Shown one piece after another: positions 19,424 through 62,768 of a stretch of DNA of 64,000 bases. Below the pieces are notes generated by a model, which saw only the letters and a list, made by a program, of their open reading frames with translations, ran no database searches and had not been told where the DNA came from. This DNA comes from Acidobacteriota bacterium (GTDB lineage Bacteria > Acidobacteriota > CAIWXX01). The position numbers were made by a program, and so were the translations under genes. The stretch's first letter is position 1; each line of letters opens with the position of its first letter. Where the stretch lies: the NCBI GenBank assembly GCA_040755995.1, contig JBFMAF010000020.1:64001-128000 (forward strand). The letters run 5' to 3'.

Positions 19424-20015
19424 GGGCTCCTCCCGTGCACGAATGCGAGATCCCATCATATCAGACGATCCCGCGCGCTCGGAGAGAGCGATCTCGACTG
19501 CTGCCAGGTGCCAGGAGTGATCGGCCTCGACTTGCGGGTGCGTCCGCCGTCTGCAAAGCGCGGGCACGCCTGCTCCGACGCCATCACGCGTCGCCGCGCG
19601 GCCCGCCATGGCAGCGTTCGCCAGAGAGCTGTACCCGGGAGAGTTCCCGGGAAGCGTTTGAGCAACACGCAATCGACTCGTCGAGGCCGCAGAGAGCACA
19701 GGGGGGTGCGGCCGGCCGGGCAGCTCTCTGCGGTCTCCGTATGCGCCGCTCTGAGCAGCCTCAGGTAGGACGCCCGAGATCGTCTCGGAACTGACGGGAA
19801 TCGGCTCATACGGGAGCCATTTCTCATACGCGCGCGCGGGGATTTGGGCGGTCGTTCCAACAAAACTCCTTGCGCCGGTGGGTCTCCGCAACTATCATTT
19901 ACCTCTTGTTGAGGGGGCAGACGGCTGCTGTGAGATCGAGACGCACTGGCATGCGTCGACCAGTCTGGAGGGACTTCATATTCGACCACCGCCCTGATCC
20001 TGAGAGGAGGAGCGC

Positions 20016-22555: not shown

Positions 22556-22718
22556 GCGGCCCGGGTCGCTCGAACATTCGGACTGGCGCGGCCGGAGGCC
22601 GGCTCGAGTTCCGGTTGCGCCGGACCGGTGGTATGATGACAAGAGACTGCTGTCCACAAGGCCCGGGGCGCGAGCGTCTCGCCTCGGCGCAGGAACATTG
22701 ATATTGGGGGGCACTCGA

Positions 22719-23093
22719 ATGGGAAAGAAGATACTGGTTGTCGACGATGAAATGGATGCGGTGACCTATTTCTCGACCGTCTTGAAGGACAACGGGTACG
22801 ACACCATCACGGCGGTGGACGGGCTGGAGGCTCTCAAGAAGATGCGGAGCGACAAGCCGGACCTGGTCACCCTGGACATCACCATGCCCGAGAAGTCGGG
22901 CGTGGGGGCTTACCGCGAGATGAAGAACGACCCGGATCTGAAGAAGATCCCGGTCGTCATCGTGACCGGCGTCACGCATGACTTCAAGAAGTTCATCTCC
23001 ACGCGCCACCAGGTGCCGCCGCCGGAAGGCTATCTGGAGAAGCCGGTCAAACCGGAAGATCTGGTGGCCGAGGTCAAGAAGCACATCGGATAA
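22719..23093 (+). CDS. Single-domain response regulator receiver
   Basis: ILVVDDE, LDITMP, VTG, EKPV; no output domain; extended -10-like TGGTATGAT at 22629-22637. Confidence 0.92.
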   Translation: MGKKILVVDDEMDAVTYFSTVLKDNGYDTITAVDGLEALKKMRSDKPDLVTLDITMPEKSGVGAYREMKNDPDLKKIPVVIVTGVTHDFKKFISTRHQVPPPEGYLEKPVKPEDLVAEVKKHIG

Positions 23094-27304: not shown

Positions 27305-27370
27305 GACAGCCTCTCCTCAGGCGCGGGCAGAGCGCCCTGGCGGGCCTCTTCGGTCCGAGGCCGCGGCCCG

Positions 27371-29146
27371 CTAGGCGCTCGGCTTGTGATGGTCGCGGAG
27401 CTCGAGAATACGCCGCAGGTTGTCGACGAGCTCATGTTCCTTCACCGGCTTGTCCATGTATCCGTCTGGAACGGGCACGGCCCGCTGGTAGATGACCTCG
27501 CGGAACTCCGGATGGCCCGTGACCACGCACACGGGAGTACGGGCCAGGCTCGGATCCCCGCGCAGCTCGGCGAATGTCTCGATCCCGTCCTTGCCCTCCA
27601 TCGACAGGTCGAGGGTGATGAGATCCGGCTTGACCTGGCGAGCCATCGCGAGAGCGGCGTTGCCGTCGGCCGCCTCGAAGACCTCCGCACCGGCATCCTC
27701 CAGCACGGTCCTGATGAACACCCGTATGTCGGGCTCGTCGTCCACGACGAGGATGCGACGGTTGTGCAATGGGAGAGCAGGTTTGGGCATTTCGACCACC
27801 GCCTTTGGTTTCTTCATTACGGCGCACTCTTCGATGAGCAGCGCGCCCGCTACCAGGTCGACGAGCTGTTGCACCTCGCACCCCAGTTTGTAATGCTTGA
27901 TGAGATCCGAGAGCCCGTCCACACAATTGTGACACGATGTTACCACTACTTGCGCACCCGTGGCCTTTATCTGTTCCGCCTTCACCTTTGCCGACTTGAG
28001 GCGGCGCGGCGTGTATTCGGACATCGACATGGCGCCGCCGCCGCCCGTGCAGCAGAAATTCTCGGCGCGATTGGGAATCATCTCGACGAAATCGGTGGTC
28101 ACGAGGCGGAGCAGCTCGCGCGGCTCCTCGGTGACCCCGCACGAGCGGGCCAGGTTGCAGGAGTCATGGTAGGTCACTCGCTTGCCGAGCCGTGTGGGAT
28201 CGACCTTGATGCGGCCCTCCTTGATGTACCTGAGCATCGTGAACACCGAGCTCTCCATGTCGAAGTCCTGGTCGATGCCGGCCCAGTTCGGCCCTTCGCA
28301 GCGCGTCGACCTGTAGCCATGGCCGCACTCGGAGATCACGATCCGCTTCGCCTTCAGCTCCGCCATCTTCTCATACACGCGGCGAGCCGCGGTGCCGCCC
28401 AGCTGGTCATCTCCTGAGAAGAGGCCGAAGTTGGTCTGGTCCCAGCCCTCCGATGGCATCGTCCAGCTCTCTCCGGCCGCCCAGAAGATCTTGGCGGCTG
28501 CCGCTATCGTGCGTGGATCGTACTTCGCTTCCCGTGGGTTGATGGTGTACATCACCTCGACATTCGGCTTGTCGATGGGTATGCGGGCCGTCTCATCCTC
28601 CACCTCACTGACCAGCTCATCCGACATCCACTCGAGGGTCTCCAGGTAATCTTCCCTCAGCACCCCCATCTGGTTGCCGATCTCCCACTGGTCTTTCGAG
28701 ACCACCCGCACACCCTCGGGCATCACGCCGACCGCCGTCAACAGGCCTCGCATCACACGGTTCACGACCGCTGTGTCCACACCCATCGGACAGTTGATGG
28801 TGCAGCGGCGGCAGTTGGTGCACGTGCCGAACGCAATGTCCTTCAGACGATCGAGATCGGCGTCCGTGAGCGGCTCCTTCGCACCGACCCACCAAGGGAA
28901 GACGCGGCCCGTCCAGTCGTAGTTGTACTTGAAGAGCTTGCGGAGCTGGTCGGCTTTGAAGGAGGGTGTCATCTTGGGATCGTCCGGGTGCGTCAACACA
29001 TAGTGGCATGCCTCATTGCACATGCCACAGTGAACGCATGCAACGAGCGACCCCACCAGGGGGCGAGTCAGCTTCTTCGCGAGAATCTCGCGCATCACCT
29101 GGATCTTGTATGTGCTATCCGAATTCCGTCTCGTATTGGTGTCCAT
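27371..29146 (-). CDS. HdrD/TmcB/HmcF-like Fe-S oxidoreductase fused to a C-terminal receiver domain
   Basis: CVHCGMCNEAC, CTNCRRCTINCP, ECGH, HDSC, CCTGGGG, SCHNC, then in frame RILVVDDE...LDLSM...VTG...DKPV. Confidence 0.92.
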   Translation of the reverse strand: MDTNTRRNSDSTYKIQVMREILAKKLTRPLVGSLVACVHCGMCNEACHYVLTHPDDPKMTPSFKADQLRKLFKYNYDWTGRVFPWWVGAKEPLTDADLDRLKDIAFGTCTNCRRCTINCPMGVDTAVVNRVMRGLLTAVGVMPEGVRVVSKDQWEIGNQMGVLREDYLETLEWMSDELVSEVEDETARIPIDKPNVEVMYTINPREAKYDPRTIAAAAKIFWAAGESWTMPSEGWDQTNFGLFSGDDQLGGTAARRVYEKMAELKAKRIVISECGHGYRSTRCEGPNWAGIDQDFDMESSVFTMLRYIKEGRIKVDPTRLGKRVTYHDSCNLARSCGVTEEPRELLRLVTTDFVEMIPNRAENFCCTGGGGAMSMSEYTPRRLKSAKVKAEQIKATGAQVVVTSCHNCVDGLSDLIKHYKLGCEVQQLVDLVAGALLIEECAVMKKPKAVVEMPKPALPLHNRRILVVDDEPDIRVFIRTVLEDAGAEVFEAADGNAALAMARQVKPDLITLDLSMEGKDGIETFAELRGDPSLARTPVCVVTGHPEFREVIYQRAVPVPDGYMDKPVKEHELVDNLRRILELRDHHKPSA

Positions 29147-29152
29147 AAATCC

Positions 29153-36860: not shown

Positions 36861-38366
36861 CTACTTCGCGGAGGATGAATCGAGACTCGTCAGCTCCACA
36901 CGCCGCACGAAGACGCCCAGCTCCCGATCGTCCTCAGACGGCGCATCGTCCTCGCTCGGGACGAATGCCGACGTGATGGCAAAGCGGATATGCAGGATCG
37001 AACCGGGAATCTGCGAGATTTCGAGCCGTTGCGCCAGCCGCCCATTGTGAGCTTCCAGAATTGCCACTGGGACCCCATTGACCACGATCTCGCCCGTAGT
37101 AAGGTTGAACGGGTTGTGGAGGTCCATGTCGATGAACAGAGACTTCTCGTCGTCGCGTCTCTGGAGAACCAGCGATGCCTCACCCTGCGTCCAGCGCCCT
37201 GCTGGAAGTCCATCGCCCCATGGCTCGCTCGACCACCAGCCTTCGTCGAGCTCCGGCTGCTCGTCAGGAGCCGCCGCGAGATCGATGGAGGGATGATACG
37301 CGTAATCAGTGTCGACAACCCCTCTGGACTCGAGGTAAGCGAGGACGATCTGGGCCATGAGGTGGCAGCCACGACGGCTGAAATGGGAGTTGTCCGCGAA
37401 GCAGTCCGCCTTCTCACGAAAGTCGGTCTCGATATCCAGGCAGTCGACATCGAGGTCCCTGGCGGTTTGCCGCGTCTCGTCATTGTACTGCTCCACGTAC
37501 ATCGCCCAGCTGTGCGGGTCGTCGGAGGTACCGATGTGGGGGCGAGTCAGAAGGACAGGAATAATTCCTCGCTCGCGCGCCGTCTGCACGAAAACCGAGA
37601 GGTTGCGGCGATAGTCCTCGATCGACACACGGTGGATGATCCCAGATTCCGGCCTGATGCGATCCAGGATGCTCCATGCCAGATGCGCCGCAGGCAGTGC
37701 CAGCCGGAGCCGGCTCCACCGCCCGAGTCTCTCGATGCGGCGGGCGTATTCCTCGTCGCTCACTCTCACCGGATGCGCATCGTTCGCCCCGAAGCTGAAG
37801 AAGACGAGGTCAGGGCGCCAGGGCAGTACCTGCTGGAATCGGCGGAGCCCCTGGAACGAAGAATAGCCAAAAACACCGGCGTTGACCACCAGGATGGGGC
37901 GAGCGGAATGATTGAGCGCCGCCATGTCCTGAAGGGACCCAGGCCAACTCTCGGCTCTGTCCAGAGGTCCGATGGTGTTGGAATCTCCAATGGCGATGAT
38001 GAGGTACTCATTGCCGTTCCTGTCCGGGCGAACCACGGGACCCCGGCAGCCCTGGTCGTTCACGAATCTACTGCCACCTGGATTGAGCTTCCACAGCAGC
38101 ACAGGGTCGAACAGGGTGAGGGGTCCGTCGCCCGATCCGGGCCGCCCGTCACCCTGCATGTGATGCGGGCGCCAGTCATTCTCGTTGTCCGGCCAGACGA
38201 AAACGATCGGAGAGAACCGGTAGTCGAGGAGCCTCAGGATCCCTTCTGCAAGAACAAGGCTGATCAGGATCGAACCGATGAACAGCGCGGCGACGCGCGA
38301 GCGTCGGCACCACTTCGACGAGGGACTCCGACTTCCGTATTGCAGCGCCCGGCGATCTCCTGCCAC
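36861..38366 (-). CDS. Membrane-anchored SGNH/GDSL hydrolase
   Basis: N-terminal TM LAEGILR; GDSNT, NAGVFGY, GAND, DNSH blocks; C-terminal beta domain; start uncertain. Confidence 0.87.
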   Translation of the reverse strand: MAGDRRALQYGSRSPSSKWCRRSRVAALFIGSILISLVLAEGILRLLDYRFSPIVFVWPDNENDWRPHHMQGDGRPGSGDGPLTLFDPVLLWKLNPGGSRFVNDQGCRGPVVRPDRNGNEYLIIAIGDSNTIGPLDRAESWPGSLQDMAALNHSARPILVVNAGVFGYSSFQGLRRFQQVLPWRPDLVFFSFGANDAHPVRVSDEEYARRIERLGRWSRLRLALPAAHLAWSILDRIRPESGIIHRVSIEDYRRNLSVFVQTARERGIIPVLLTRPHIGTSDDPHSWAMYVEQYNDETRQTARDLDVDCLDIETDFREKADCFADNSHFSRRGCHLMAQIVLAYLESRGVVDTDYAYHPSIDLAAAPDEQPELDEGWWSSEPWGDGLPAGRWTQGEASLVLQRRDDEKSLFIDMDLHNPFNLTTGEIVVNGVPVAILEAHNGRLAQRLEISQIPGSILHIRFAITSAFVPSEDDAPSEDDRELGVFVRRVELTSLDSSSAK

Positions 38367-38510
38367 TGATTATACTCAACACGAAGGCTCCAGCGGCTGC
38401 CCAACACGCCGCATGACTCGGACGAGCACGACACTTGCTCGCCGCGGCCGACTCGCGGCGGGCCGCTTCTCGATGCGCCGTATCGCCAGGCCGCGCAGTG
38501 CGGATCGCCG

Positions 38511-38735
38511 TCAGAACTTGATCTGGCAGCGTTTGACTCCGCCTCCCTCGTCCCGCAGCCAGACAAGCACCTTCTTGGCCCGCACACACCAATCCCGCAC
38601 ATCTGTCTCGAAACTCGGACAATCGGCAACGATGTCGAGCACGTCGCCAGTCTTCAATTTGATTGCCATGACGGAAATCCTGAGGGTCGGTAACGGGCAC
38701 CTCAGGCCCTTCAGGTCAGCGTGAACTGTGGCCAT
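38511..38735 (-). CDS. tusA: TusA-family sulfur carrier
   Basis: 74 aa; DLKGLRCPLP, GDVLDIVAD, DVRDWC; AGGAGG RBS. Confidence 0.9.
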   Translation of the reverse strand: MATVHADLKGLRCPLPTLRISVMAIKLKTGDVLDIVADCPSFETDVRDWCVRAKKVLVWLRDEGGGVKRCQIKF

Positions 38736-38794
38736 TTCTGCGTCCTCCTACTGTGTTGTGCAAGTGCCATTGCGAGATCAAGCCGGTGCTCCAC

Positions 38795-39235
38795 TTACTG
38801 ATTGTTCCGCAGCGGTCCGAGCGCCCTGACGGTCTCGACCATGCTGGTGATCACGCTCACAAACCTGGTGCCTTCACTTGCCGAAACAAATTCGAATCGG
38901 CAGCGATCTTCGGCTATCCCAAATTGCTTCAGCAGCCTTACGAGCAGCCTGTGGCGCTGGAGCGCGCGGTAGTTGCCCTCCTTGTAGTGGCAGTCGCCCG
39001 GATGGCAGCCCAGGATTATCACGCCGTCAGCCCCGAGCTCATATGCCCTCATGACGAACTGCGGGTCGATCCTCCCGGTGCACATTACCCTGATCACGTA
39101 GACATTCGGCGGATAGGGTGTTTGAAAGGTGCCGGCCTTGTCTGCGCCGGCATACGCGCACCAGTTGCAGAGGAACCCGATGATCTTGGGCTCGAAACCC
39201 TCGCCGCTCGGGGGAATCGCGATCTCGGGCATCAT
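38795..39235 (-). CDS. mvhD: MvhD/FlpD [2Fe-2S] subunit
   Basis: GFLCNWCAYAGAD, RVMCTGRID, GCHPGDCHY, SASEG; start overlaps the hdrA stop. Confidence 0.94.
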   Translation of the reverse strand: MMPEIAIPPSGEGFEPKIIGFLCNWCAYAGADKAGTFQTPYPPNVYVIRVMCTGRIDPQFVMRAYELGADGVIILGCHPGDCHYKEGNYRALQRHRLLVRLLKQFGIAEDRCRFEFVSASEGTRFVSVITSMVETVRALGPLRNNQ

Positions 39236-41196
39236 TCCAACACTCCTGCCAGTTCCGCACAGATCGCGCGGTCGGTGAAGAATTGCCCCTCTATTACCCC
39301 GGCCGGACACGCTGCCACACAGGTGCCGCAACCCTGGCAGAGGACGGCGTTGACAACGGAGACCTCCTTGTCCGCGTCGAACGATATCGCCTTGTACGGG
39401 CACACTTTGCCACAAACGCGGCAGCCCGAGCATCTCTCTGCGTCGATTGACGCCGTGATCGGCTCGACATACAGCTTCTTGCCTTCGACGAGCCCCGACA
39501 GGATATAGCCCGCGGCCGCCGCGCCCTGGCTCATCGCATGTTGGATATCCATGGGCGACTGGCAGGCGCCGGCCAGATATATGCCTCGCACGGTGCTCCT
39601 CCCGGCATCCAGCCGGTCATGAAGCTCCTCGAAAAAGCCGAACCTATCGCAATTCGTGTCCATCGTTGCAGCGAGGTTCGCGGCCGAATCGGAGGGGACG
39701 ACGGCTGGACAGAGGACCACAATGTCCGCGTCGAAGCTCCCGAGGCTTCCGGTCGTATCTCTGTATGCGACATTCGGGTTTCCAGCCGAATCCGAGACTC
39801 TGATGTCCTGGATGTCCCCGTACCGGACGAAGGCAGCGTTGGGATTGGCACGCGCCCTGTGGAGTATCGACGACTCATGCTTGCCAGGCACCGCGATCTC
39901 CTTGTAGAGATGCAACACCTTTGTCCCGGGCAGTTTGGTCTCGATCATGTGATTGAACTTGAATGCGTACTGGCAGCAGACGGCCGAACAGTAGTCGTTG
40001 CGCCGGACGTCCAGGCTCCCCACGCAGTGGATGATGGCCACGGCATCAGGGGACTCGTGTCCGGCGAGCTGAAGGAGCCCTGCGGTAGGGCCGTTTGACG
40101 CGAGAATCCGTTCGAAATCGAGCGCGGTGAGAACTCCGCCGATGCGGCCGTAGCCGAGGTCCGGCAGCTTCCTGCAGTCGTAGAGGCTCGCCCCAATGGC
40201 GACGACGATTGCGCCCACCTCCCGCTCGATCATCTGCGCGGCCTGCGCGTGGTCGATCACGCTCTCACCCACCGGGCATGCGGCTTTGCACGCCTGGCAG
40301 TCCTCTCCGCGGAATCGGATGCATGTGTGCGCATCGAGAGAGGGGACGTTCGGGAGGGCTCCGGGGAATGGCACATCTATAGCTTTTCGTTCGTTGAGGC
40401 CGCAGTTGAACTCATTCGTTGCGCTCACTGGGCAGACAGGGATGCACTCGCCACAGCCGACGCAGAGCTCGCTGCTCACGTACCGAGGCGACTGGCGTAT
40501 CCTCGCCGTGAAGCGGCCGTGGAAACCTACGACGTCGACGACCTCGGCGAGGGTCCGGATCTCGATCCGCCCGGAGTGTTCGCCGTGGAGAATCTCGCCA
40601 AGCAACGGCTCCAGCATGCACGATCCGCACTCCATGGTCGGCGCGATCTCCTCGAACCGCACAGGCAAGCCCCCGAGGACCGGCGACTTCTCCACGACGG
40701 TGACCCTGCGGCCGGCCTCGGCCAGGGTAAAGGCCGCCTTCAGTCCCGCCGGCCCGGCTCCGACGACCAGAACCTCGGGACAGACATCCAGCTCCTGCCT
40801 GTCGAGCGGCTGATGGAGCCGGATGCGTGCCACGGCACCGCGGATGAGCCTCGCAGCTTTCTCTGTGGCGCGGGCTGGGTCGGGAGTCACCCAGGCCACC
40901 TGTTCCCGGATGTTCACCATCTGCATCAAGTACGGGTTCACTCCCGCTGAGGCGAGGACACGCCTGAAGGTAGGCTCATGGTCCCTGGGCGAGCAAGCAG
41001 CGATGACGACGCGATCGGGGGCATTGTCGCGCAGATTCGATTCGAGCGCGGCCTTGCCTTCCTCCGAACACATGAAGTCGATTGCCTCGAGATAGACGGC
41101 CTCTGTGTGACCGTGCAGCGACTCCATCAAGCGCGCGCTGCTGATTCTCTCGCTTATGCTGGTGCCGCAGCTGCAAAAGTAAATGCCGACCTTCAT
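39232..41196 (-). CDS. hdrA: Heterodisulfide reductase subunit A (FAD, Fe-S)
   Basis: Start MKVGIYFCSCG; AACSPR, NIREQ, GAGPAG, FER, HCVGS, CSAVCC, C-terminal 2x[4Fe-4S]. Confidence 0.95.
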   Translation of the reverse strand: MKVGIYFCSCGTSISERISSARLMESLHGHTEAVYLEAIDFMCSEEGKAALESNLRDNAPDRVVIAACSPRDHEPTFRRVLASAGVNPYLMQMVNIREQVAWVTPDPARATEKAARLIRGAVARIRLHQPLDRQELDVCPEVLVVGAGPAGLKAAFTLAEAGRRVTVVEKSPVLGGLPVRFEEIAPTMECGSCMLEPLLGEILHGEHSGRIEIRTLAEVVDVVGFHGRFTARIRQSPRYVSSELCVGCGECIPVCPVSATNEFNCGLNERKAIDVPFPGALPNVPSLDAHTCIRFRGEDCQACKAACPVGESVIDHAQAAQMIEREVGAIVVAIGASLYDCRKLPDLGYGRIGGVLTALDFERILASNGPTAGLLQLAGHESPDAVAIIHCVGSLDVRRNDYCSAVCCQYAFKFNHMIETKLPGTKVLHLYKEIAVPGKHESSILHRARANPNAAFVRYGDIQDIRVSDSAGNPNVAYRDTTGSLGSFDADIVVLCPAVVPSDSAANLAATMDTNCDRFGFFEELHDRLDAGRSTVRGIYLAGACQSPMDIQHAMSQGAAAAGYILSGLVEGKKLYVEPITASIDAERCSGCRVCGKVCPYKAISFDADKEVSVVNAVLCQGCGTCVAACPAGVIEGQFFTDRAICAELAGVLE

Positions 41197-41660
41197 GACA
41201 GTCTCTCCGCTATGCGACCGACGATCCGTTCGGCAGCGAGGGGCACGGATCGCGCGACCGCCTCGGTCAGCTCTCCACTGAACGTGTCGACGTCCTGCGC
41301 CTCGATCCCCCAAACCTCGATCACATCCGGCATCGGCAGCCCCAGCGCGCGGCCCAGTTCCAGGGCCACGGGGAGGCTGGTGTCGTGGGACGACGCCAGG
41401 TTGCGTGTTGCGGGCCGCCGGCTGAGCGGCACGGCCTGAATGGTCCCCGGCTCGACGATCCCGGTGACCATGGCATCGACGACTATGGCCCGCTCAAATC
41501 CTGCCATGGCCTCCATCAGCCCCAGACCTCCGACGTAAGCCTCTTTGACGTGAACGTCCGGGCGGCTGCTCATCTTCTCGCTCACCAGGCATGCGACGCG
41601 AAGTCCGACGGCGTCGTCAGAACGAACCGGATTGCCGAGCCCGATCACCACGGTCTTCAT
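41193..41660 (-). CDS. [NiFe]-hydrogenase maturation endopeptidase
   Basis: Start MKTVVIGLGN..RSDDAVG; IVVDA, SSH. Confidence 0.93.
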   Translation of the reverse strand: MKTVVIGLGNPVRSDDAVGLRVACLVSEKMSSRPDVHVKEAYVGGLGLMEAMAGFERAIVVDAMVTGIVEPGTIQAVPLSRRPATRNLASSHDTSLPVALELGRALGLPMPDVIEVWGIEAQDVDTFSGELTEAVARSVPLAAERIVGRIAERLS

Positions 41661-43144
41661 GCGTCCCTCTTGAGCGTCCGCAGCAGCTCGCCTTCGGCGC
41701 TGCGTACGTTGACGACGAGCGGCATGCGACCCGGCAGCGCGTGCGTCGCGCACGAGAGGCACGGATCATAGAGCCTGAAGGCCATCTCGATTCGATTGAG
41801 CAGGCCGTCAGTCGCAACCACGCCTCTCTTGATGAGCCCCTCGGCCGCTCTCCGGATGCTCATCGAAATCGGCGCGTGGTTGTTGGTGGTGCCGACGACA
41901 AGGTTCACCCGCGTGAGGACGCCGCGCTCGTCGGACTCGTAGTGGTGCGTGAGCGTGCCCCGCGGCGCTTCGACGCACCCGATCCCGATTCCGACTATCT
42001 TTTCCGGGATCCGGCGCACTTCCGGCGAGGTCAGCACCGGATCCTCGGCCAGTTCGAGCATCCGCTCGGATGCGTACAGCATCTCGATGAGCCTCGCCCA
42101 GTGCGTCGCCAGCCGATGGTGCACGGGCTGGCAGCGCCCGTTCACCCTCTTGCACCCGAACGCCTCGTAGAACCTCTCGAAGTGCCCCTGCGCCTTCGGC
42201 GTCGCCATGCGATCCGACACGTTGAGCCTCGCGAGCGGCGATGCGCAGTAGACGCCGCTGTCGCTGCCATCGACGAAGCCCTTCCATCCGGTCTTCCTCA
42301 AGAACGGGAATTTCAGGTATGTCCATGGCTCGACGTGCTCGGCGATGTGCTCAAGATAGGCGTTCGCATCGTACTTCACCAGCTCTACGCCGTCGGGCCC
42401 GACGATCCTGATCATACCGTCGTAGAAGTTGGCCCGGTTCTGATCGTCGACCATACCCATGTAGTACGTGCGGTGCAGAAAGAGATCCGACGTGAGAAGC
42501 TCGGCATGGGCCGGATTCGACAGAACGATGTCATGGAAGACCTGCAGGCTGAAGAGCGCGAAGTCGATGTTCTTCCGCGCTATTTCCAGGAGCTCCATCC
42601 GTTCCGGTTCCGTCACTGCTCTGCTCCAGCCTCCCGGTACTCCAGCCACCGGGTGGATGCCGCGCCCCCCGAGCATCTCGATCGCGTGGTGGTTTCTCTT
42701 GCGGCAATCGATCACTGCCTTGCCGATCTCGACACCGACCTTGCGCACGACGCCGAAGATGTTTCGCTCGCTCGGGGGCGCGTCCGGCCCAACGATGAAG
42801 TCCGGACCGCCGAGCGCATAGAAGTGAGTGGTGTGGTCGCTGACGTAGAACGCCGAGTACACCAGCTCGCGGATCACCCTCCCGGCGGGCGGGGGGTCCA
42901 CGCCGAAGAGCGCATCGAGTGCCTTCGCCGAGGCCATGTGGTGTGCTTCCGGACAGACCCCGCAGATCCGGCTGGTGATGACGGGCATGTCTTCGGCGAG
43001 CCTCCCGATGCAGAAGTGCTCAAACCCCCGCAGCTCCGGCACCTGGAAGTACGCGTTCGCGACGTCACCCTGGTCGTCGAGGAATATCTCTATCCGGCCG
43101 TGACCCTCGAGCCTGGTGATCGGATCGATCGAGATGCGATTCAT
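41657..43144 (-). CDS. mvhA: [NiFe]-hydrogenase large subunit, group 3c (MvhA type)
   Basis: IDPITRLEGH, RGFE, L1 RICGVC, EAPRG, L2 DPCLSCATH plus cleavable tail. Confidence 0.95.
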   Translation of the reverse strand: MNRISIDPITRLEGHGRIEIFLDDQGDVANAYFQVPELRGFEHFCIGRLAEDMPVITSRICGVCPEAHHMASAKALDALFGVDPPPAGRVIRELVYSAFYVSDHTTHFYALGGPDFIVGPDAPPSERNIFGVVRKVGVEIGKAVIDCRKRNHHAIEMLGGRGIHPVAGVPGGWSRAVTEPERMELLEIARKNIDFALFSLQVFHDIVLSNPAHAELLTSDLFLHRTYYMGMVDDQNRANFYDGMIRIVGPDGVELVKYDANAYLEHIAEHVEPWTYLKFPFLRKTGWKGFVDGSDSGVYCASPLARLNVSDRMATPKAQGHFERFYEAFGCKRVNGRCQPVHHRLATHWARLIEMLYASERMLELAEDPVLTSPEVRRIPEKIVGIGIGCVEAPRGTLTHHYESDERGVLTRVNLVVGTTNNHAPISMSIRRAAEGLIKRGVVATDGLLNRIEMAFRLYDPCLSCATHALPGRMPLVVNVRSAEGELLRTLKRDA

Positions 43145-44142
43145 CCCATCTTCCCTTTGAGGATCGAGTGAGCGAGGCTGTACTTGTAGAACGTCCCCGC
43201 GCAGTCGGGAATGGCGTCGAGGATGGCGTCGATACGGTCCTGTCCCGACGGCCCGCCTTTCGCACGGCCCAGGTCCAGGATCGATCCAAGGGAGGCGACC
43301 ATCTTCGCGCCCTGGTCCTGCACCCCTTCCGGCGCCCCGTAGCAGCCGGTGCACGGCATGTTGACCTTGGGGCAGAGCCCGCCGCAGCCGTCTCTCGTTG
43401 CGATCCCCATGCAGATTAGCCCCTGCTCGAGGAGGCATTGATCGGGATCCGGTATGAGCTCGAATGTCCGGTGAAACCCGCCGATGATCTTGTCCTGCTT
43501 CTTCCGCGTGCACTCGTCGCACACGGTGGACCGGCCGGCCCCGAGGACGCTCCCCTTCGGGGGCAGGGGCGCTCCCCTAAGGAGCAGATCGACGACGTTC
43601 GAGAGTTGGCGAGGCTCAGGCGGACACCCCGGGATGAAGTAGTCCACATCGGTGACCTGCTCGAGCGTCTGGACTCGATCGAAGAACTCGGGAAGGCGCA
43701 GCTCCCCTTCGGCGACCGGCGTCCCAGGCGCAGGTGTGGCCCGAGTGGGGTTGTCGAGCGAGGGACTCTCGATGTAGATCGTACGCATGTGTTCGGAAGC
43801 AGTCGAGAGATTGCTGAGAGCCGGCATGCACCCCTCGTACGCACACGATCCGTACGCGACAAGCACCTGGGACTTGTGGCGCAGGAGCCGCGCCATTTCG
43901 CGGTTCTCCTCGGTTCTGACCGCCCCATTGAAGAGCGTGACGGCGATCCCACGGTCCGGGAGCGCCTCGACCCCCGCCTTCTTCGTGTCCACGAGGCAGG
44001 GGCAGAAGACCAGATCGAAGTGCGCATCGATCTCCAGTATCTTCTCGTGCAGGTTCAGCAACGAGATCTCGCATCCTCCGCAGGAGGCAGCCCAGTACAT
44101 ACTCAGCAGCGGCTTGTCCACTTTGGTGTGCTCCCTGAACAT
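43141..44142 (-). CDS. mvhG: [NiFe]-hydrogenase small subunit (MvhG type), cytoplasmic
   Basis: SCGGCE, YGSCA, PGCPP, CDEC, CLLEQG..CMG, C...CP...PCTGC; no Tat signal. Confidence 0.93.
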   Translation of the reverse strand: MFREHTKVDKPLLSMYWAASCGGCEISLLNLHEKILEIDAHFDLVFCPCLVDTKKAGVEALPDRGIAVTLFNGAVRTEENREMARLLRHKSQVLVAYGSCAYEGCMPALSNLSTASEHMRTIYIESPSLDNPTRATPAPGTPVAEGELRLPEFFDRVQTLEQVTDVDYFIPGCPPEPRQLSNVVDLLLRGAPLPPKGSVLGAGRSTVCDECTRKKQDKIIGGFHRTFELIPDPDQCLLEQGLICMGIATRDGCGGLCPKVNMPCTGCYGAPEGVQDQGAKMVASLGSILDLGRAKGGPSGQDRIDAILDAIPDCAGTFYKYSLAHSILKGKMG

Positions 44143-44361
44143 GATGACGCCGGCTCGCCGGTGCGCTCAGTCGCGCAACCCGGTCGCCGGCCAATCACGC
44201 ATGAATGGCCGCGGCGTCGCGTTCAGTCCCTCCCGGTTTTCTCTCTGCCCCGTGGTTGCCCCACCACATGTGCGCGCTAGTGTATCACATCCACACCGGT
44301 TCTGCAGCAGCTGATTCAAGGGGAATCCATCTGTCCACGAACGTGTACGGGGACGGGGCTG

Positions 44362-44390
44362 TTGACAAGGTCGGCTTGTCGGGCTAGTTT
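44362..44390 (+). promoter_or_regulatory. Sigma-70 promoter with overlapping inverted repeat
   Basis: TTGACA-N17-TAGTTT; GACAAG-N5-CTTGTC at 44364-44380. Confidence 0.65.
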
Positions 44391-44465
44391 TACGTCTCGG
44401 AAATCGCACAAACAGAATGAGAGGAACTTCCCAGGCCAGATGTGGCGCCGGCGAGTGGGTAGGGA

Positions 44466-45242
44466 ATGACTGAGTGGTACTATCTGGATGGCGGACAACA
44501 GATCGGGCCGCTCTCAGATGATGATATCAAGAAAGCGGTCGCGAGGGGGGCGGTGACGGGCCAGACGCTGGTCTGGCGAGCCGGGCTGGCCGGATGGGAG
44601 AAGTATGAGATCGCGAGCTCGGCCGGCGCATCGGACGCCTTCGGCGTAGCGCCGGTAGCAGGCATCTCAACTGGCAGCGTCGTCTGCTCACAGTGCGGCG
44701 GGCGCTTCACGACCGAAGAAGCGATCCTCTTCGAGAGCCTGTGGGTGTGTGCCGGGTGCAAGCCAACGTTCTTCCAGAAGCTCAAGGAAGGGGCACGACC
44801 GGCGGGGCTGATGGAGTATGCGGGGATCGGCCAGCGGTTTCTCGCGCGTGTGCTGGATGGGCTGATTGTCGGCGTCCCTCTGATGATTCTACTCGGTTTG
44901 TCGATGTTTCTGCTGATCGGTCGGATGGAATCGCAGCCGGCTGACAGCGCCTTGCCACTGGCGTCCGTCCTGCTGATGGAGTTGGGCATGTATGCGATCT
45001 GGGGCGCTTACAACATCTTGATGATCGGCAGATACGGCGCAACGGTGGGCAAGATGGCCCTCAAGATCAGGATCGTTACGGCAGGAGGCGGGCGTGTCAG
45101 TTATGCGAGAGCAGCCGGGCGGTTCTTCGCGGAAATCCTCAGCGGAATGATCCTGTACATCGGCTACATCATCGCCTTCTTCGACAGCGAGAGACGTGCG
45201 CTTCATGACCACATCTGCAGCACGAGGGTGATCCGTGCGTGA
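44466..45242 (+). CDS. GYF_2 (DUF4339) + zinc ribbon + RDD-family membrane protein
   Basis: WYY..GGQQIGP...TLVWRAGL..W; CSQC/CAGC; YAG..RFLARVLD, GKM..I, LHD. Confidence 0.9.
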   Translation: MTEWYYLDGGQQIGPLSDDDIKKAVARGAVTGQTLVWRAGLAGWEKYEIASSAGASDAFGVAPVAGISTGSVVCSQCGGRFTTEEAILFESLWVCAGCKPTFFQKLKEGARPAGLMEYAGIGQRFLARVLDGLIVGVPLMILLGLSMFLLIGRMESQPADSALPLASVLLMELGMYAIWGAYNILMIGRYGATVGKMALKIRIVTAGGGRVSYARAAGRFFAEILSGMILYIGYIIAFFDSERRALHDHICSTRVIRA

Positions 45243-49854: not shown

Positions 49855-50820
49855 ATGAGCCAGGAACTTGACTATCTCAAGGACGTGCTGAAGCGGGCGA
49901 AGGATGAGGTTTCGAAGGTCATCATCGGCCAATCGGAGGTGATCGACCATTCGCTCGTGGTCATCTTCACGGGGCACCATGCCATTATCGAAGGTGTTCC
50001 CGGTGTCGCCAAGACGCTTCTCGTCAGAACTCTCGCGCAGATCATCAAGTGCGATTTCGCCCGCATACAGTTCACCCCCGACCTGATGCCTGCCGACATC
50101 ACCGGGACCAATGTGTTCAATCTCCAGAGGAACGAATTCGCATTGGTCAAGGGTCCTGTGTTCACGACGTTTCTCCTGGCGGACGAGATCAATCGCGCGC
50201 CGGCCAAGACTCAGTCGGCGCTGCTGCAGGCGATGCAGGAACGGCAGGTCACGATCGATCGCGAGACCTACCCGCTCTCGCCCCTCTTCACCGTGTTCGC
50301 AACGCAGAACCCTATCGAATACGAAGGGACGTACCCGCTGCCGGAGGCCCAGAAGGACCGATTCATGCTCAAGATAATCATGGGGTGCCCCGAGCAGGAT
50401 GAGGAACTGGTACTCGCACGCCGGATGCTCGGGCGCGATTCTCCCGAGGCCACGCTCGCGAGCGGCGCGGTCAAGCCGGTGCTGGGCCCGGAGGAGCTGC
50501 TGAGGCTGCGGCCGGTGTTCGAAGAGGTGACGGTGCGCGAAGAGCAGCTCGCGTATGTCGTCGAGCTTGTCCGGCGGACTCGCAGTCACCAGAGCCTCAT
50601 GGTCGGCGGCGGCCCGCGCGCCACCCAGTCCCTTCTCCTGGCAAGCCGGGCGCACGCAGCGCTGCAGGGGAGGGACTTCGTGACCCCCGACGACATCCGG
50701 TTCATGCTGTTGCCCGTCCTGGATCACCGCCTGATCCTGCGTCCGGAATTCGAGGTCGAAGGGATGACAGTCCGGGAAGCCGTCCAGAACCTGCTCAACG
50801 CAGTGCCGGTGCCGCGCTGA
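49855..50820 (+). CDS. moxR: MoxR-family AAA+ ATPase
   Basis: EGVPGVAKT, RIQFTPDLMPAD, LADEINRAP, ATQNPIEYEGTYPLPEAQ.DRF. Confidence 0.96.
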   Translation: MSQELDYLKDVLKRAKDEVSKVIIGQSEVIDHSLVVIFTGHHAIIEGVPGVAKTLLVRTLAQIIKCDFARIQFTPDLMPADITGTNVFNLQRNEFALVKGPVFTTFLLADEINRAPAKTQSALLQAMQERQVTIDRETYPLSPLFTVFATQNPIEYEGTYPLPEAQKDRFMLKIIMGCPEQDEELVLARRMLGRDSPEATLASGAVKPVLGPEELLRLRPVFEEVTVREEQLAYVVELVRRTRSHQSLMVGGGPRATQSLLLASRAHAALQGRDFVTPDDIRFMLLPVLDHRLILRPEFEVEGMTVREAVQNLLNAVPVPR

Positions 50821-50848
50821 GGCAGCGGGACAGGGAGGCGCAGGGGAA

Positions 50849-52183
50849 ATGAGAATCGTCCCCCGGACCCGGCTGCTCGTTTGGGTGGCCGTCGTTGCAG
50901 TCCCACTCGGCACGATGGTCTCCATCAGCCGGTCCACGGCGTCGATCACTGCGATTCTCCTGGCGTGCTTCGCGATCTTCGTTCTCAGCGACGCGTTCCG
51001 CTCCCTGGCCTCCCTCGATCGCGTCTCAGTGAGACTGCCTGCTGTGATCCGAATGACCAAGGATCGAGATGCTCGGATCCCAGTCGAGATCTCGAACGAA
51101 TCGCGAGGCGACCGCCCGGTCCGGATCGGGATGGCGCTCCCGGCGTCAATACAGACGCCGCTCGACGTGGCCAGCCTCCTGCTGCCTCGAGACCAACCTC
51201 TCTCTCGCGTCGACTGGCCCTGCCGCCCGCAGTCGCGCGGCAGTTTCGCCGTTGAAGGCTGCCACCTAGAGACCTGTTCGCCAGCCGGCTTCTGGTCCGT
51301 GTGCAAGAGGATCGCGTCGGCCTCCGAGATCCGCGTCTATCCGAACCTGTGGGAAGAGCGCAAGGAAGTCGGGTTTCTCTTCCTGAACCGCGGCACGATC
51401 GGCATCCACTCCCAGAGGCAGCTGGGCAAGGGCCGTGATTTCGAGAAGCTGCGTGACTACATACCAGGCGATCCTTCCGACGAGATCCATTGGAAGGCGA
51501 GTGCCAAGCGAGGGCGCCCTGTCACCAAGGTCTTCCAGGTCGAGAGGACTCAGGAGGTATACGTCGTCATAGACAGCTCGCGCCTGACGGCGCGGCGCTC
51601 GGGCGGAGCCTCCTCGCTCCCGGTGATCGAGCGGTTCCTGACGGCCGCGCTGGCGATGGCATTGGCCGCGCAGCGGCAAGGGGATCTCTTCGGGCTGCTC
51701 GCCTTCAGCGACCGCGTCGACAGGTTCGTGCGCGCACGAAGCGGGAAGGGGCATTTCCAGAGCTGCCGCGAAGCACTGTATACTCTGCGCACTCGCCCCG
51801 TCAGCCCTGATTTCGCGGAGATCATGACGTTTCTTCGCAACCGGCTCAGACGCCGGGCTCTGGTCATCTTCCTCACTGCACTTGATGATCCGCTGCTGGC
51901 TGAAACCTTCGTGCGGCAGGCCGACCTCATACGCAACGCGCATCTCGTGCTTGTGAGCATGGTACATCCGGCGAACGCAGTACCTCTGTTCTCCACCGCA
52001 GGCGTAGACTCTGTCTCGGATCTTCATGAACGGCTCGCATCGCACTATGCCTGGCACAAGCTCAAGGAGCTGGAGTTGACTCTGAGGCGGCGAGGGGTCT
52101 CGTTCATGCTCCTGGACCACGAGAAGATGTGCGCGCAATTGGTTTCGCAGTATCTCAACGTGAAGAAGCGCCAGTCGATCTAG
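50849..52183 (+). CDS. DUF58 (vWA-like) protein
   Basis: VYP, FEKLRDYIPGD...IHWKASA, IDSSR, IFLT. Confidence 0.92.
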   Translation: MRIVPRTRLLVWVAVVAVPLGTMVSISRSTASITAILLACFAIFVLSDAFRSLASLDRVSVRLPAVIRMTKDRDARIPVEISNESRGDRPVRIGMALPASIQTPLDVASLLLPRDQPLSRVDWPCRPQSRGSFAVEGCHLETCSPAGFWSVCKRIASASEIRVYPNLWEERKEVGFLFLNRGTIGIHSQRQLGKGRDFEKLRDYIPGDPSDEIHWKASAKRGRPVTKVFQVERTQEVYVVIDSSRLTARRSGGASSLPVIERFLTAALAMALAAQRQGDLFGLLAFSDRVDRFVRARSGKGHFQSCREALYTLRTRPVSPDFAEIMTFLRNRLRRRALVIFLTALDDPLLAETFVRQADLIRNAHLVLVSMVHPANAVPLFSTAGVDSVSDLHERLASHYAWHKLKELELTLRRRGVSFMLLDHEKMCAQLVSQYLNVKKRQSI

Positions 52184-52184
52184 C

Positions 52185-53186
52185 ATGATCATCGACGTAG
52201 CGAAGTTCGTATCGGCGGAAAGGCTGTACTGGGTCAGGCTCGAGGGGCTCCTGGACAGGATCGAGAGCGATCCCGAGTCGCGCCTCGACATGGCTGGCAT
52301 CAAGGAGCTGCACTACCTGTACGAGCGCACTTCGGCCGATCTGGCCAGAGTATCCACATTCGCCTCGGAACGAGAGATTCGTGTGTATCTCGAGTCGCTC
52401 GTGGCGCGTGCTTACGCAGAGATGCAGGAGACGGGGCGAAGGGAATCCCGGATGCGACCCATCTCGTGGTTCTTCACTGCTGTCCCGCAAACGTTCAGGC
52501 GGCGCATCACCGCCTTCTGGCTCGCCGTTGCGGCTACCACTGCGGGCGCAACGCTGGGGATTCTCGTCACAGTGCTCGACCCGGCTTCGAAGGGCGCGCT
52601 CATCCCGTTCGAACACCTTCGCATCAGCCCGCAGGAACGTGTTGCTGAGGAGGAAACCGGTGATGAGGACCGGCTTGCCGGCCACAAGGCGTCCTTTGCC
52701 ACAGCCTTGATGACGCACAACGCCAGAGTAGCCGTCCTGACGCTGGCTCTCGGCGTCACGTGGGGTCTCGGCACCATCGTGGTGCTCTTCTACAACGGAG
52801 CCGTTCTCGGTGCAGTGGGAATGGACTACATCATGGGAGGCCAGAGAGAATTCCTGCTGGGTTGGCTGCTGCCACATGGCGTAGTGGAGATCCCGGCGGT
52901 GCTGATCGCGGGGCAGGCAGGGTTCGTACTGGCGCGAGCACTTGTGGGCTACGGCGATCGTACTCCAATCAGAGCGAGGCTGCGCCTGGCCGCGCCGGAC
53001 ATCGTCACGCTGATCATCACCGTTGCGGTCCTTCTCGTGTGGGCGGGTTTCGTCGAGGCGTACGTTTCGCAGCACCACCAGCCCGCTCTGCCGTACGCGC
53101 TCAAGATCGGCTTCGGCCTGGTCGAGCTTGCAGTGCTGGTCTCCTTTCTTGCGTTCGCCGGCCGGCGCTCAGGAGAGGCTGCATAG
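52185..53186 (+). CDS. SpoIIM/DUF95-family membrane protein
   Basis: LY...SADLA, HN..V, FYNG..LG, LPHGVVEIPA, AGFVE. Confidence 0.9.
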   Translation: MIIDVAKFVSAERLYWVRLEGLLDRIESDPESRLDMAGIKELHYLYERTSADLARVSTFASEREIRVYLESLVARAYAEMQETGRRESRMRPISWFFTAVPQTFRRRITAFWLAVAATTAGATLGILVTVLDPASKGALIPFEHLRISPQERVAEEETGDEDRLAGHKASFATALMTHNARVAVLTLALGVTWGLGTIVVLFYNGAVLGAVGMDYIMGGQREFLLGWLLPHGVVEIPAVLIAGQAGFVLARALVGYGDRTPIRARLRLAAPDIVTLIITVAVLLVWAGFVEAYVSQHHQPALPYALKIGFGLVELAVLVSFLAFAGRRSGEAA

Positions 53187-53198
53187 CAGGAGCCGTCG

Positions 53199-54002
53199 AT
53201 GCCTGGAGGAAAGACTCTCACGATCACGACCCCGGAAGGCATCAGCTTCTCCATGCCGCTGGCCGGGCCGATCTCGCGTTTTCTCGCCTGGTGCATAGAC
53301 TGCGCATGCGTCGTGCTCCTGGGAACCGCGGTTGGGGTTCTGGTCTCGCTGCTGTCGATTGTGAGCGGCGACGTTGCGCAAGCTCTTGGAGTGATCGGCT
53401 ACTTCGTGCTCTCGATCGGATATCGCATCTTCCTGGAGTGGAAATGGCGCGGACGCACTCTGGGCAAACGCCTGTTGCGCCTGCGAGTGATCGATGTGCA
53501 GGGCATGCCTCTGCAGCTCAACCAGGTGATCATCCGAAATCTCCTCCGTGCAGTCGACTCGCTGCCTCTGTTCTACGTGGTCGGCGGCGTGGCGTGCCTC
53601 CTGAGCGCCCGATCTCAGCGGCTGGGAGACCTGGCGGCGAATTCAGCCGTGATCCGCCAGCCTCGCGCCCGCGAACCGGATCTGCGCCAGGTGTTGCCGG
53701 GCAAGTTCAATTCGCTGCGGGATTACCCGCACCTCTGCGCGCGGCTGCGCCACCGCGCGACGCCGCAGGAAGCCGGCCTGGCGCTGCGCGCTCTGCTTCG
53801 CCGGGAAACGCTCGACCCTGAGGCCCGCATCGAGCTCTTCGCCGGCCTCGCAACGCACTTCCGCGCGCTGGTGCAATTCCCCGCCGAGACGACCGAAGGC
53901 GTCACCGACGAACAGTATCTCCGCAACATCGTCGACGTGCTTTGTCGAGGCTCCGAGGCTCGTGAAGATCGACCGGACGGTCCCGATGGGATTGTGGCTT
54001 GA
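53199..54002 (+). CDS. RDD-family membrane protein
   Basis: TPEGI...LAG..SRFLA..ID, GRTLGK..LRLRV, IRNLLR.VD, QRLGDLAA. Confidence 0.92.
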   Translation: MPGGKTLTITTPEGISFSMPLAGPISRFLAWCIDCACVVLLGTAVGVLVSLLSIVSGDVAQALGVIGYFVLSIGYRIFLEWKWRGRTLGKRLLRLRVIDVQGMPLQLNQVIIRNLLRAVDSLPLFYVVGGVACLLSARSQRLGDLAANSAVIRQPRAREPDLRQVLPGKFNSLRDYPHLCARLRHRATPQEAGLALRALLRRETLDPEARIELFAGLATHFRALVQFPAETTEGVTDEQYLRNIVDVLCRGSEAREDRPDGPDGIVA

Positions 54003-54338: not shown

Positions 54339-54341
54339 GCC

Positions 54342-54614
54342 ATGCCGGCGTCCCACCGGCGGAGTGCCGTTTTTGAGCCCGAGTTCCGCGAGGATCTGAG
54401 GTTCTGGGTCGAGACCGACCGCAGGGCTGCCCTCCGAGTGCTCAGCCTGGTCGAGTCTGCCTTGCGGGATCCATTCGCTGGAATTGGCAAGCCTGGAGCG
54501 CTCAGGTACTTGGGCCCGGGTGTGTGGTCACGCCGGCTGACCGAAGAGCACAGAGTGGTCTACCTGGTGGAGAGCGATCGAATCAAGTTCCTTCAAGCGC
54601 GTTATCACTACTGA
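54342..54614 (+). CDS. yoeB: YoeB/Txe mRNA interferase toxin
   Basis: DPF.GIGKP, WSRRLTEEHRVVY, terminal RYHY. Confidence 0.93.
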   Translation: MPASHRRSAVFEPEFREDLRFWVETDRRAALRVLSLVESALRDPFAGIGKPGALRYLGPGVWSRRLTEEHRVVYLVESDRIKFLQARYHY

Positions 54615-62740: not shown

Positions 62741-62768
62741 GAGCCTCGCTCGACCGCGCACAGGGCCG

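Follow-up and report, generated by a model that had tools for sequence, protein, structure and literature searches.

We analysed a 64,000-nt stretch of DNA from an Acidobacteriota bacterium (GCA_040755995.1, contig JBFMAF010000020.1, positions 64,001-128,000 of the forward strand; hereafter the window), which carries a six-gene operon in the order mvhG-mvhA-protease-hdrA-mvhD-tusA. The operon joins a [NiFe] hydrogenase and the flavoprotein HdrA to a two-cysteine TusA-like protein, and hdrB and hdrC are missing from it. The linkage of tusA to the mvh and hdr genes was strongly conserved, surviving three gene orders and at least three phyla. The reading that we favour, tentatively and as a possibility that falls somewhat short of probable, is that H2 drives, by way of HdrA, a reduction of the cysteine pair of TusA or of the sulfur bound to it, coupled to ferredoxin reduction.

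Under this reading the six genes would supply one soluble complex, in which a cytoplasmic Mvh-type [NiFe] hydrogenase with its own protease would be wired through MvhD to HdrA. H2 would be oxidised at MvhA, and electrons would travel through the clusters of MvhG and the cluster of MvhD to the flavin adenine dinucleotide (FAD) of HdrA, where the pair would be split. One electron would then pass over the ferredoxin-like domains of HdrA to ferredoxin, and the other would end on the co-encoded TusA; in methanogens this second electron passes through HdrC and HdrB to the heterodisulfide of coenzyme M and coenzyme B (CoM-S-S-CoB). Oxidised TusA would be a Cys13-Cys39 disulfide, or would hold a persulfide or sulfur bridge on this pair, and it would be reduced to the dithiol, with sulfide released if sulfane sulfur was bound. 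HdrA Cys496 would be a candidate contact or relay toward TusA. We infer the path as far as the HdrA FAD, and on to ferredoxin, by homology with the methanogen Mvh-Hdr complexes of known structure. TusA as the acceptor, a role for Cys496 and bifurcation itself are proposals, and the case for TusA as acceptor draws on the linkage of tusA, the lack of hdrBC at the locus, the cysteine pair and the clade-specific Cys496.

Electron bifurcation by HdrA has a central place in the energy conservation of anaerobes, and to our knowledge the only understood exit of the high-potential electron of HdrA is HdrBC with a low-molecular-weight heterodisulfide. A widespread and self-contained hydrogenase-HdrA unit that lacks HdrBC but has a two-cysteine TusA points to an exit on a protein-bound cysteine pair or its sulfur. 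If true, this would be a new class of acceptor for flavin-based bifurcation, would connect the oxidation of H2 in the cytoplasm with sulfur trafficking in sulfate reducers, Nitrospirota and other groups, and would explain Mvh-type hydrogenases in bacteria without coenzymes M and B. In the sulfate reducer studied here, the likely use would be a cytoplasmic route from H2 to ferredoxin that is paid for by thiol or sulfane-sulfur reduction, and signalling proteins may in addition sense the state of TusA in many relatives. No description of an mvh-hdrA-mvhD-tusA unit was found in a search of the full-text literature, which had most subscription journals outside its reach; the TusA-centred count, the Cys496 marker, the clade test and the link to signalling genes are new here.

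The operon and its proteins

The gene content of the GC-rich window (GC 0.61-0.69) was called with Pfam and NCBIfam profiles. All genes of the operon lie on the minus strand. They encode the hydrogenase small subunit MvhG (43141-44142; 333 amino acids (aa); Pfam Oxidored_q6, PF01058, 82.8 bits), the large subunit MvhA (41657-43144; 495 aa; Pfam NiFeSe_Hases, PF00374), a maturation protease of the HycI/HybD type (41193-41660; 155 aa; Pfam HycI), the FAD and multi-[4Fe-4S] flavoprotein HdrA (39232-41196; 654 aa), the [2Fe-2S]-type electron-transfer subunit MvhD (38795-39235; 146 aa; Pfam FlpD, PF02662, 165.3 bits) and the TusA-like protein (38511-38735; 74 aa; Pfam TusA, PF01206, 43.8 bits against a cut-off of 28.6). 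The first-pass annotation had described 4-nt overlaps from mvhG through mvhD, with tusA 59 nt further on, and both the sequence and the profiles bore this out. ATGA overlaps occur at all four junctions (mvhG/mvhA, mvhA/protease, protease/hdrA and hdrA/mvhD), the mvhD stop codon is at 38795-38797 and the tusA ATG is at 38735. The 59-nt spacer (38736-38794), as read from the sequence, contains a tusA ribosome-binding site, AGGAGG, 7 nt ahead of the ATG. A simple scan of 38200-44600 found no promoter-like or terminator-like site on the operon strand, and the sole terminator-like site in this interval is on the opposite strand, outside the operon. The neighbours are unrelated: the downstream one encodes a GDSL lipase, and the upstream, divergent one a GYF/RDD protein. 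The arrangement is far beyond chance, because the same gene order recurs in unrelated assemblies.

Large subunits of Mvh-type hydrogenases have the nickel motifs RxCGxC near the N-terminus and DPCxxC near the C-terminus, followed by a cleavable C-terminal tail. Direct reading of MvhA gave an N-terminal RICGVC and a C-terminal DPCLSCATH, beyond which a tail of roughly 27 residues extends. The best NCBIfam matches were VhuG for MvhG (221.4 bits, under the equivalog cut-off of 450), VhuA for MvhA (358.8 bits over model positions 1-418 of 418, under the cut-off of 800) and VhuD for MvhD (122.9 bits, under the cut-off of 215). Five cysteines of MvhD were invariant across 36 relatives, and the protease matched TIGR00072 with 103 bits against a cut-off of 47.45. 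By these sequence features, namely the large-subunit motifs and tail together with MvhG and MvhD, the enzyme is assigned to the Mvh-type (group 3c-like) [NiFe] hydrogenases. Regulatory, H2-sensing hydrogenases have a large subunit without the C-terminal tail and no dedicated protease, whereas the MvhA tail and a protease gene are both present here.

HdrA residues 2-652 matched residues 2-641 of the methanogen HdrA 8rvv_A (E = 4.7e-136), HdrA also matched 5odc_A (E = 1.4e-133), and the protein has the FAD fold, the N-terminal cluster domain and both the inserted and the C-terminal ferredoxin domains. The FER and CC..A.K motifs that had been claimed for it are present as DFERIL and CSAVCCQYAFK, and E362, R363, C403, C407, C408, A411 and K413 were invariant in 36 relatives. 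So were 24 cysteines of the cluster motifs, with Cys8 and Cys10 kept in at least 90%. An extra cysteine, Cys496 (VVLCPAV), was invariant in 36/36 TusA-linked HdrAs. Position 496 was A, S, M or T in all rows without TusA linkage that were compared (the host's own paralogues, relatives' HdrAs and split HdrAs) and Gly in methanogen HdrA. Cys545 was likewise invariant in the 36 TusA-linked relatives, and it was ruled out as a marker of the clade since it is present in many HdrAs without TusA linkage; the divergent HdrA of genome G056 retains Cys496 but not Cys545. In a quick IQ-TREE analysis of 54 HdrAs, 37 TusA-linked HdrAs were separated from 17 others by a branch length of 0.7 with a support of 100 in the SH-like approximate likelihood ratio test (SH-aLRT), and the window HdrA fell in the TusA-linked clade, grouping with that of locus L110 (SH-aLRT 91). 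That these HdrAs form a clade apart, marked by an invariant cysteine, is more easily reconciled with a change of partner than with a shared partner.

Two further observations were made on HdrA genes. Paralogues from the host itself (C4, in L024) and from L034, L035 and L038 have an in-frame TGA at the position of window HdrA Cys193 (TMECGSCM motif), and they are probably selenocysteine forms. The TusA-linked HdrA of L085 contains one in-frame stop.

The window TusA fits the PF01206 profile and has the CPxP active-site cysteine of the family. Its cysteine pair consists of Cys13, in the CPLP motif, and Cys39, in an ADC motif. Aligned with E. coli TusA (1dcj, 3lvj), Cys13 corresponds to Cys19, Cys39 to Asp45, Asp45 to Asp51 and Cys50 to Cys56. 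Both Cys13 and Cys39 were invariant in 36/36 relatives and also in a 10-row set that included the distant dsrE-linked type described below. According to Shi et al. (PMC2854127), Asp45 of E. coli TusA is buried, its side chain hydrogen-bonds the NH of the active Cys19, and it is conserved in every TusA homologue that is more than about 24% identical. In the window protein and its 36 relatives alike, ADC replaces the ADD that holds this aspartate. Because the Asp45 position contacts the active cysteine, the thiols of Cys13 and Cys39 must sit side by side, a predicted geometry that suits a disulfide or a bridging sulfur. The second cysteine beside the active one makes a TusA-bound disulfide or persulfide chemically plausible as an acceptor, and on this point the sequence agrees with what had been proposed from the window. 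A search near TusA length returned 13 proteins, all plain TusA, and Protein Atlas returned only generic TusA clusters.

Conservation and distribution of the tusA linkage

An HdrA-centred scan with one genome per species gave 12 loci. The six closest (L041-L046), at 54-59% HdrA identity, came from five Nitrospirota/Nitrospiraceae metagenome-assembled genomes (MAGs) and one Ignavibacteriota MAG. All six had hdrA-mvhD-tusA, and the full order mvhG-mvhA-protease-hdrA-mvhD-tusA was found in 4/4 of those with enough sequence.

A TusA-centred metagenome scan gave 514 relatives, of which the best 80 were kept; being the best matches to the query, these are mostly orthologues, and they include near-copies (71 groups at 95% TusA identity). 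Their neighbours were tested by tblastn with the six proteins of the window and the HdrB, HdrC and fused HdrCB of the host. Ten of the 80 loci were uninformative because they had less than 450 nt upstream. In the remaining 70, tusA touched an mvh or hdr gene in 61. It directly followed mvhD in 54/70 (median gap about 50 nt), directly followed mvhA in 6/70, in the order hdrA-mvhD-mvhG-mvhA-tusA, and directly preceded mvhG in 1/70. The complete six-gene order was present in 17 TusA-centred loci. A lack of conservation of the tusA adjacency had been named in advance as grounds for rejecting the original idea; the adjacency was conserved despite two rearrangements.

A more distant TusA, 45-52% identical, was found beside mvhD and a split hdrA together with dsrE in four MAGs (Thermoplasmata, Fibrobacterota, WOR-3 and one unclassified bacterial MAG) and in genome G402. 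MvhD and HdrA are thus the common partners of the two-cysteine TusA type. In the Thermoplasmata MAG (L047, 20-4192), a 1391-aa protein with eight rhodanese domains is encoded just upstream of tusA-mvhD-split hdrA.

Within the phylum the module is sparse. The best non-self HdrA match among 40 relatives was 45% identical, and 8/41 genomes, the host included, had an HdrA match at E <= 1e-100. The two-cysteine TusA type occurred in 4/401 genomes of the phylum, including the host, and in 0/2 family mates. The other three carriers differ in layout, with a divergent mvhA-protease-hdrA-mvhD-tusA in G056, dsrE-tusA-mvhD-hdrA in G402 and, in G274, an orphan tusA ahead of a gene for a GGDEF protein. Simple vertical inheritance was ruled out by the 45% best HdrA match and the patchy occurrence of TusA; the module is patchy and probably mobile between phyla.

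Electron acceptors and signalling neighbours

Absence of hdrBC from the window had been noted in the first-pass annotation. We scanned 48 open reading frames (ORFs) of the window with Pfam and found no hdrB or hdrC among them; selection of the ORFs relied on length and on GC by codon position, and genes that are short or atypical may have escaped it. Just two of the 48 had a CCG domain (20546-22552 and 27374-29152), both of the HdrD/DsrK type. They lie 10-18 kb from the operon in other operons, and a route to TusA through these nearby CCG proteins, as had been suggested, was not borne out. Linkage of the module to CCG modules was likewise absent: when 86 other loci were searched with the two CCG proteins of the window and the NarI-like protein, matches arose only through the CCG-REC receiver domain. 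The host genome (7.74 Mb, 56 contigs, 99.8% complete) gave a different picture, with 20 matches to the CCG domain and numerous paralogues of HdrA. When 76 proteins from around these genes were annotated with NCBIfam, they revealed the gene set of a sulfate reducer (AprA, QmoABC, Sat, DsrMKJOP, TmcB/HmcC) and several HdrB/HdrC-type sets. Contig C8 has hdrA with a fused HdrCB-like CCG protein; C4 has a 478-aa fused HdrCB (TIGR03288, 266.9 bits), an HdrA-MvhD fusion with the in-frame TGA and an HdrL-like protein; C29 has two CCG domains next to NuoEF/HoxU-like genes, MvhD and an HdrL of 1109 aa; and C26 has hdrC, hdrB, an hdrA fragment, NuoF, a HoxU-HdrA fusion, MvhD, VhuG and VhuA. A further contig, C18, has an HdrA-MvhD fusion with VhuG and VhuA. 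Each HdrB/HdrC set in the host genome adjoins its own hdrA paralogue. The lack of hdrBC therefore held for the window, the locus and the loci of relatives, and did not extend to the genome, which has the sets on C4, C8, C26 and C29. As a whole, the earlier reading kept its locus without hdrBC, its conserved tusA and its plausible acceptor, and lost the CCG route.

The operon was compared with known Hdr systems. The methanogen MvhAGD-HdrABC complex (structures 5ODC, 8RVV/8RVU, 9SFI and 7BKB) has the same MvhA, MvhG, MvhD and HdrA, and the full-length HdrA match keeps the cluster cysteines and the FAD fold. It differs in that our locus has no HdrB/HdrC, has the two-cysteine TusA added, and has an HdrA of a separate clade with Cys496. 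An HdrB with two CCG domains and an HdrC encoded with HdrA were found neither in the operon and window nor in the flanks of L041-L046, where Pfam detected no CCG protein. In addition, the bacterial host is presumed to lack CoM/CoB metabolism. Sulfate reducers have Mvh/Hdr and Flx-Hdr sets that include HdrBC, and DsrC has been proposed as a "bacterial heterodisulfide". These sets resemble the present module in host type and in being soluble HdrA/MvhD complexes proposed to reduce a protein-bound cysteine pair; unlike them, this locus lacks HdrBC and its conserved partner is TusA, not DsrC. The dsrE-tusA-mvhD-split-hdrA operons of uncultured anaerobes (L047, L049-L051 and G402) share a Cys13/Cys39 TusA beside MvhD and HdrA with no recognisable HdrB. 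They differ in having no hydrogenase, an HdrA in two genes without Cys496, DsrE-like, FrhB-like and Fer4_8 proteins, and a second MvhD. In the sHdr system of sulfur oxidisers, as described in the accessible text of PMC11094781, an Hdr-type complex is also genetically tied to TusA, and a TusA/DsrE3/rhodanese relay hands sulfur to the complex on protein cysteines. By the same text, sHdr differs in having HdrB1/B2, HdrC1/C2 and lipoate-binding proteins, no hydrogenase or MvhD, and an oxidative direction; its TusAs combine the CPXP cysteine with a second, C-terminal one that is dispensable for transfer, and that text does not describe a Cys at the Asp45 position. Our operon encodes no CCG-domain protein, and no search aimed at LbpA was made.

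Signalling genes were identified by Pfam on the flanks and by tblastn with signalling queries, and 64 of the 71 dereplicated groups were informative. A signalling gene started or ended within 300 nt of the module in 31/64 groups, and a gene for a methyl-accepting chemotaxis protein (MCP) or cheW was the immediate neighbour in 23/64, nearly all co-oriented with the module; these counts are not independent events, because these loci supplied the queries and synteny is shared among relatives by descent. MCP and cheW were counted separately because the "CheA", "CheB" and "S54act" queries also match generic kinase and receiver domains. The arrangements varied. cheW was found 6-281 nt after tusA, followed by MCP-cheB-cheR-cheA (e.g. 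L041, L081, L090), an MCP gene directly before mvhG (L042, L046, L076, L077, L107), an MCP ORF directly after tusA (L089, L106, L109, L110) and an MCP gene inserted between mvhD and tusA (L138). Orphan tusA genes were beside an MCP (L141), a CheA/CheW hybrid (L127), GAF-HD proteins (L126, L144) or the GGDEF protein of G274. Many of the adjacent MCPs have two membrane-like segments, some with a very short predicted loop, as judged by crude hydropathy only. MCP genes were rare in five carrier genomes (12, 16, 12, 2 and 15), and one of the two in G044 adjoins the module. On the HdrA tree, signalling neighbours were spread over several distinct subclades, and L110, the nearest relative of the window, was among the loci that have one. 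A search of about 8 kb to each side of the window operon gave no MCP, che, GGDEF or GAF-HD gene, and the four MCP genes of the host genome lie on other contigs.

Several observations weigh against TusA as the acceptor. We know of no disulfide- or persulfide-reducing site in HdrA, and in all solved complexes that we know of HdrB does this. The split HdrAs of the distant dsrE-tusA type lack Cys496, and nine of the 70 informative TusA relatives have no mvh or hdr neighbour. G274 has its orphan tusA and no HdrA above 38% identity, and since orphan tusA occurs without mvh/hdr genes, this TusA type can work without the complex. In L129 (3011-7222), tusA comes immediately after a maturation protease gene that belongs to a group-1-like [NiFe] hydrogenase; this enzyme has an NrfD-type membrane subunit, and a SulP sulfate permease is encoded downstream on the other strand. 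No TusA fusion, including TusA-HdrA and TusA-MvhD, was found among proteins of 131-2000 aa (four candidates, none of which scored), which is weak evidence. Finally, the several HdrB/HdrC or fused HdrCB proteins of the host might serve in trans. In that case the unit would be an ordinary Mvh-Hdr system with parts encoded elsewhere, in which HdrA docks HdrBC, a fused HdrCB or a DsrK-type protein and reduces a conventional thiol acceptor such as a DsrC trisulfide or disulfide, and TusA would only exchange sulfur with this acceptor. Such a system would suit a genome of sulfate-reducer type with so many HdrB/HdrC-type proteins. Among the five genomes behind L041-L046, four had matches to the HdrB model (148-254 bits, all below the curated cut-off); the fifth, G043, whose completeness is not established, had no HdrB-like gene at E <= 1e-5. 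HdrB/HdrC-like matches also occurred in 2/80 TusA-centred loci (L111 and L115), as a separate hdrC-hdrB-hdrA-mvhD-mvhA cluster about 2.2 kb after tusA, and TusA-to-DsrC sulfur relays are established in sulfur oxidisers (PMC11094781). However, every HdrB/HdrC set sits beside its own hdrA paralogue in the relatives as in the host: the HdrB-like genes of the relatives either adjoin folD in clusters of the hdrC-hdrB-hdrA type or come after an HdrA/MvhD fusion. This placement may still be compatible with a sharing of HdrBC. The module nevertheless keeps tusA, and not hdrBC, through its rearrangements and across phyla, and its HdrAs form a clade of their own with an invariant cysteine. We regard supply of HdrBC in trans as unlikely.

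The 23/64 groups with an MCP or cheW neighbour make a sensory role a serious rival, even if we hold it to be rather unlikely. Here Mvh-HdrA-MvhD would be a low-turnover H2 or redox sensor that sets the thiol, disulfide or persulfide state of TusA, and TusA would be a small diffusible input to chemoreceptors or CheW, diguanylate cyclases and HD-GYP-type phosphodiesterases, with taxis toward H2 or sulfur, or a switch of lifestyle, as the outcome. The step in which the complex reduces TusA is common to this proposal and to H2-driven TusA reduction coupled to ferredoxin; the purpose differs. The frequent, mostly co-oriented signalling neighbours, their varied arrangements between loci and spread over HdrA subclades, the signalling genes beside orphan tusA, and the placement of one of only two MCP genes of G044 next to the module all argue for it. 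A transfer of sulfur from TusA to sulfane-sensing repressors has been proposed (PMC11582611). A precedent is the Mvh cluster of Geobacter sulfurreducens, a cytoplasmic bacterial Mvh with a protease that runs from cheW to an MCP, bracketed as about one third of our modules are. In Table S2 of PMC7894505, GSU2416-2423 are listed as cheW (mvhQ), hypothetical, small subunit, large subunit, ferredoxin (mvhF), hypothetical, protease and MCP (mvhV); the supplements of PMC8691401 have no entries for these genes. Compared by this gene list only, the cluster has a ferredoxin, two hypothetical proteins and no named HdrA, MvhD or TusA, so the chemotaxis link may belong to Mvh hydrogenases generally. Against a sensor stand the 33/64 informative groups without a signalling neighbour, the non-independence of the counts, the lack of signalling genes near the window operon, the MvhA tail and dedicated protease, as in catalytic hydrogenases, and the full six-cluster HdrA, which would be elaborate for a sensor. 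A more specific form of this idea, which we think unlikely, makes the unit a hydrogen-responsive redox signalling device, in which the H2/ferredoxin state would be written onto the TusA cysteine pair and read by MCP/CheW, diguanylate cyclases and HD-GYP phosphodiesterases. TusA would then be a free-standing input protein, with a logic like that of H-NOX proteins. Were the device real, it would give a molecular basis for taxis and lifestyle switching toward H2 or reduced sulfur, and the co-oriented pairing with chemoreceptor and cyclic di-GMP genes is a concrete candidate for bacterial H2 sensing for taxis. It is very unlikely, in our judgement, that TusA is an accessory protein which supplies sulfur for the assembly or repair of a cofactor within the complex, be it its iron-sulfur clusters or a modified site, with no role in turnover. 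This would agree with tusA being the final gene of the operon and set off by a spacer, as many accessory genes are, with the orphan tusA of L129 behind the protease of a different hydrogenase, and with E. coli TusA as a general sulfur hub for cofactor and tRNA thiolation (PMC2854127; PMC11582611). On the other hand, the Asp45-to-Cys change and the strict two-cysteine signature are unlike housekeeping TusA, no tusA adjoins the other Mvh-HdrA sets of the host (C18, C26) over the stretches examined, and the frequent pairing of orphan tusA with signalling genes would be left unexplained.

Other observations in the window and the host genome

The two CCG proteins of the window lie in settings of their own. 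At 27374-29152 (minus strand), an Fer4_8 dicluster, a CCG domain of the HdrD/DsrK type and a C-terminal receiver domain are combined in one protein, and a PAS histidine kinase (25850-27316, minus strand) adjoins it. Judging from its domains, this fusion could be a redox enzyme controlled by phosphorylation, or a redox output of a two-component system. At 20004-23090 (plus strand), a NarI/DsrM-like membrane protein, the DsrK/HdrD-like Fer4_8-CCG protein (20546-22552, plus strand), which sits behind it, and a receiver-domain protein are encoded in a row. The pattern is repeated in host C10 (L063:2762-6682), with DsrM-like and DsrK-like proteins, a response regulator and a histidine kinase.

A single frame of 2427 aa (55985-63265, minus strand) holds DUF748, TamB, POTRA repeats and an Omp85 barrel, and it resembles the two components of the translocation and assembly module (TAM) joined into one protein. 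A row of genes at 49855-54002 (plus strand) encodes a MoxR AAA+ ATPase and DUF58/VWA, SpoIIM-like and RDD proteins behind DUF4129 and DUF4350 proteins; this is a common, poorly understood membrane-associated set. A YoeB-type toxin gene (104 bits) is located at 54339-54611 on the plus strand.

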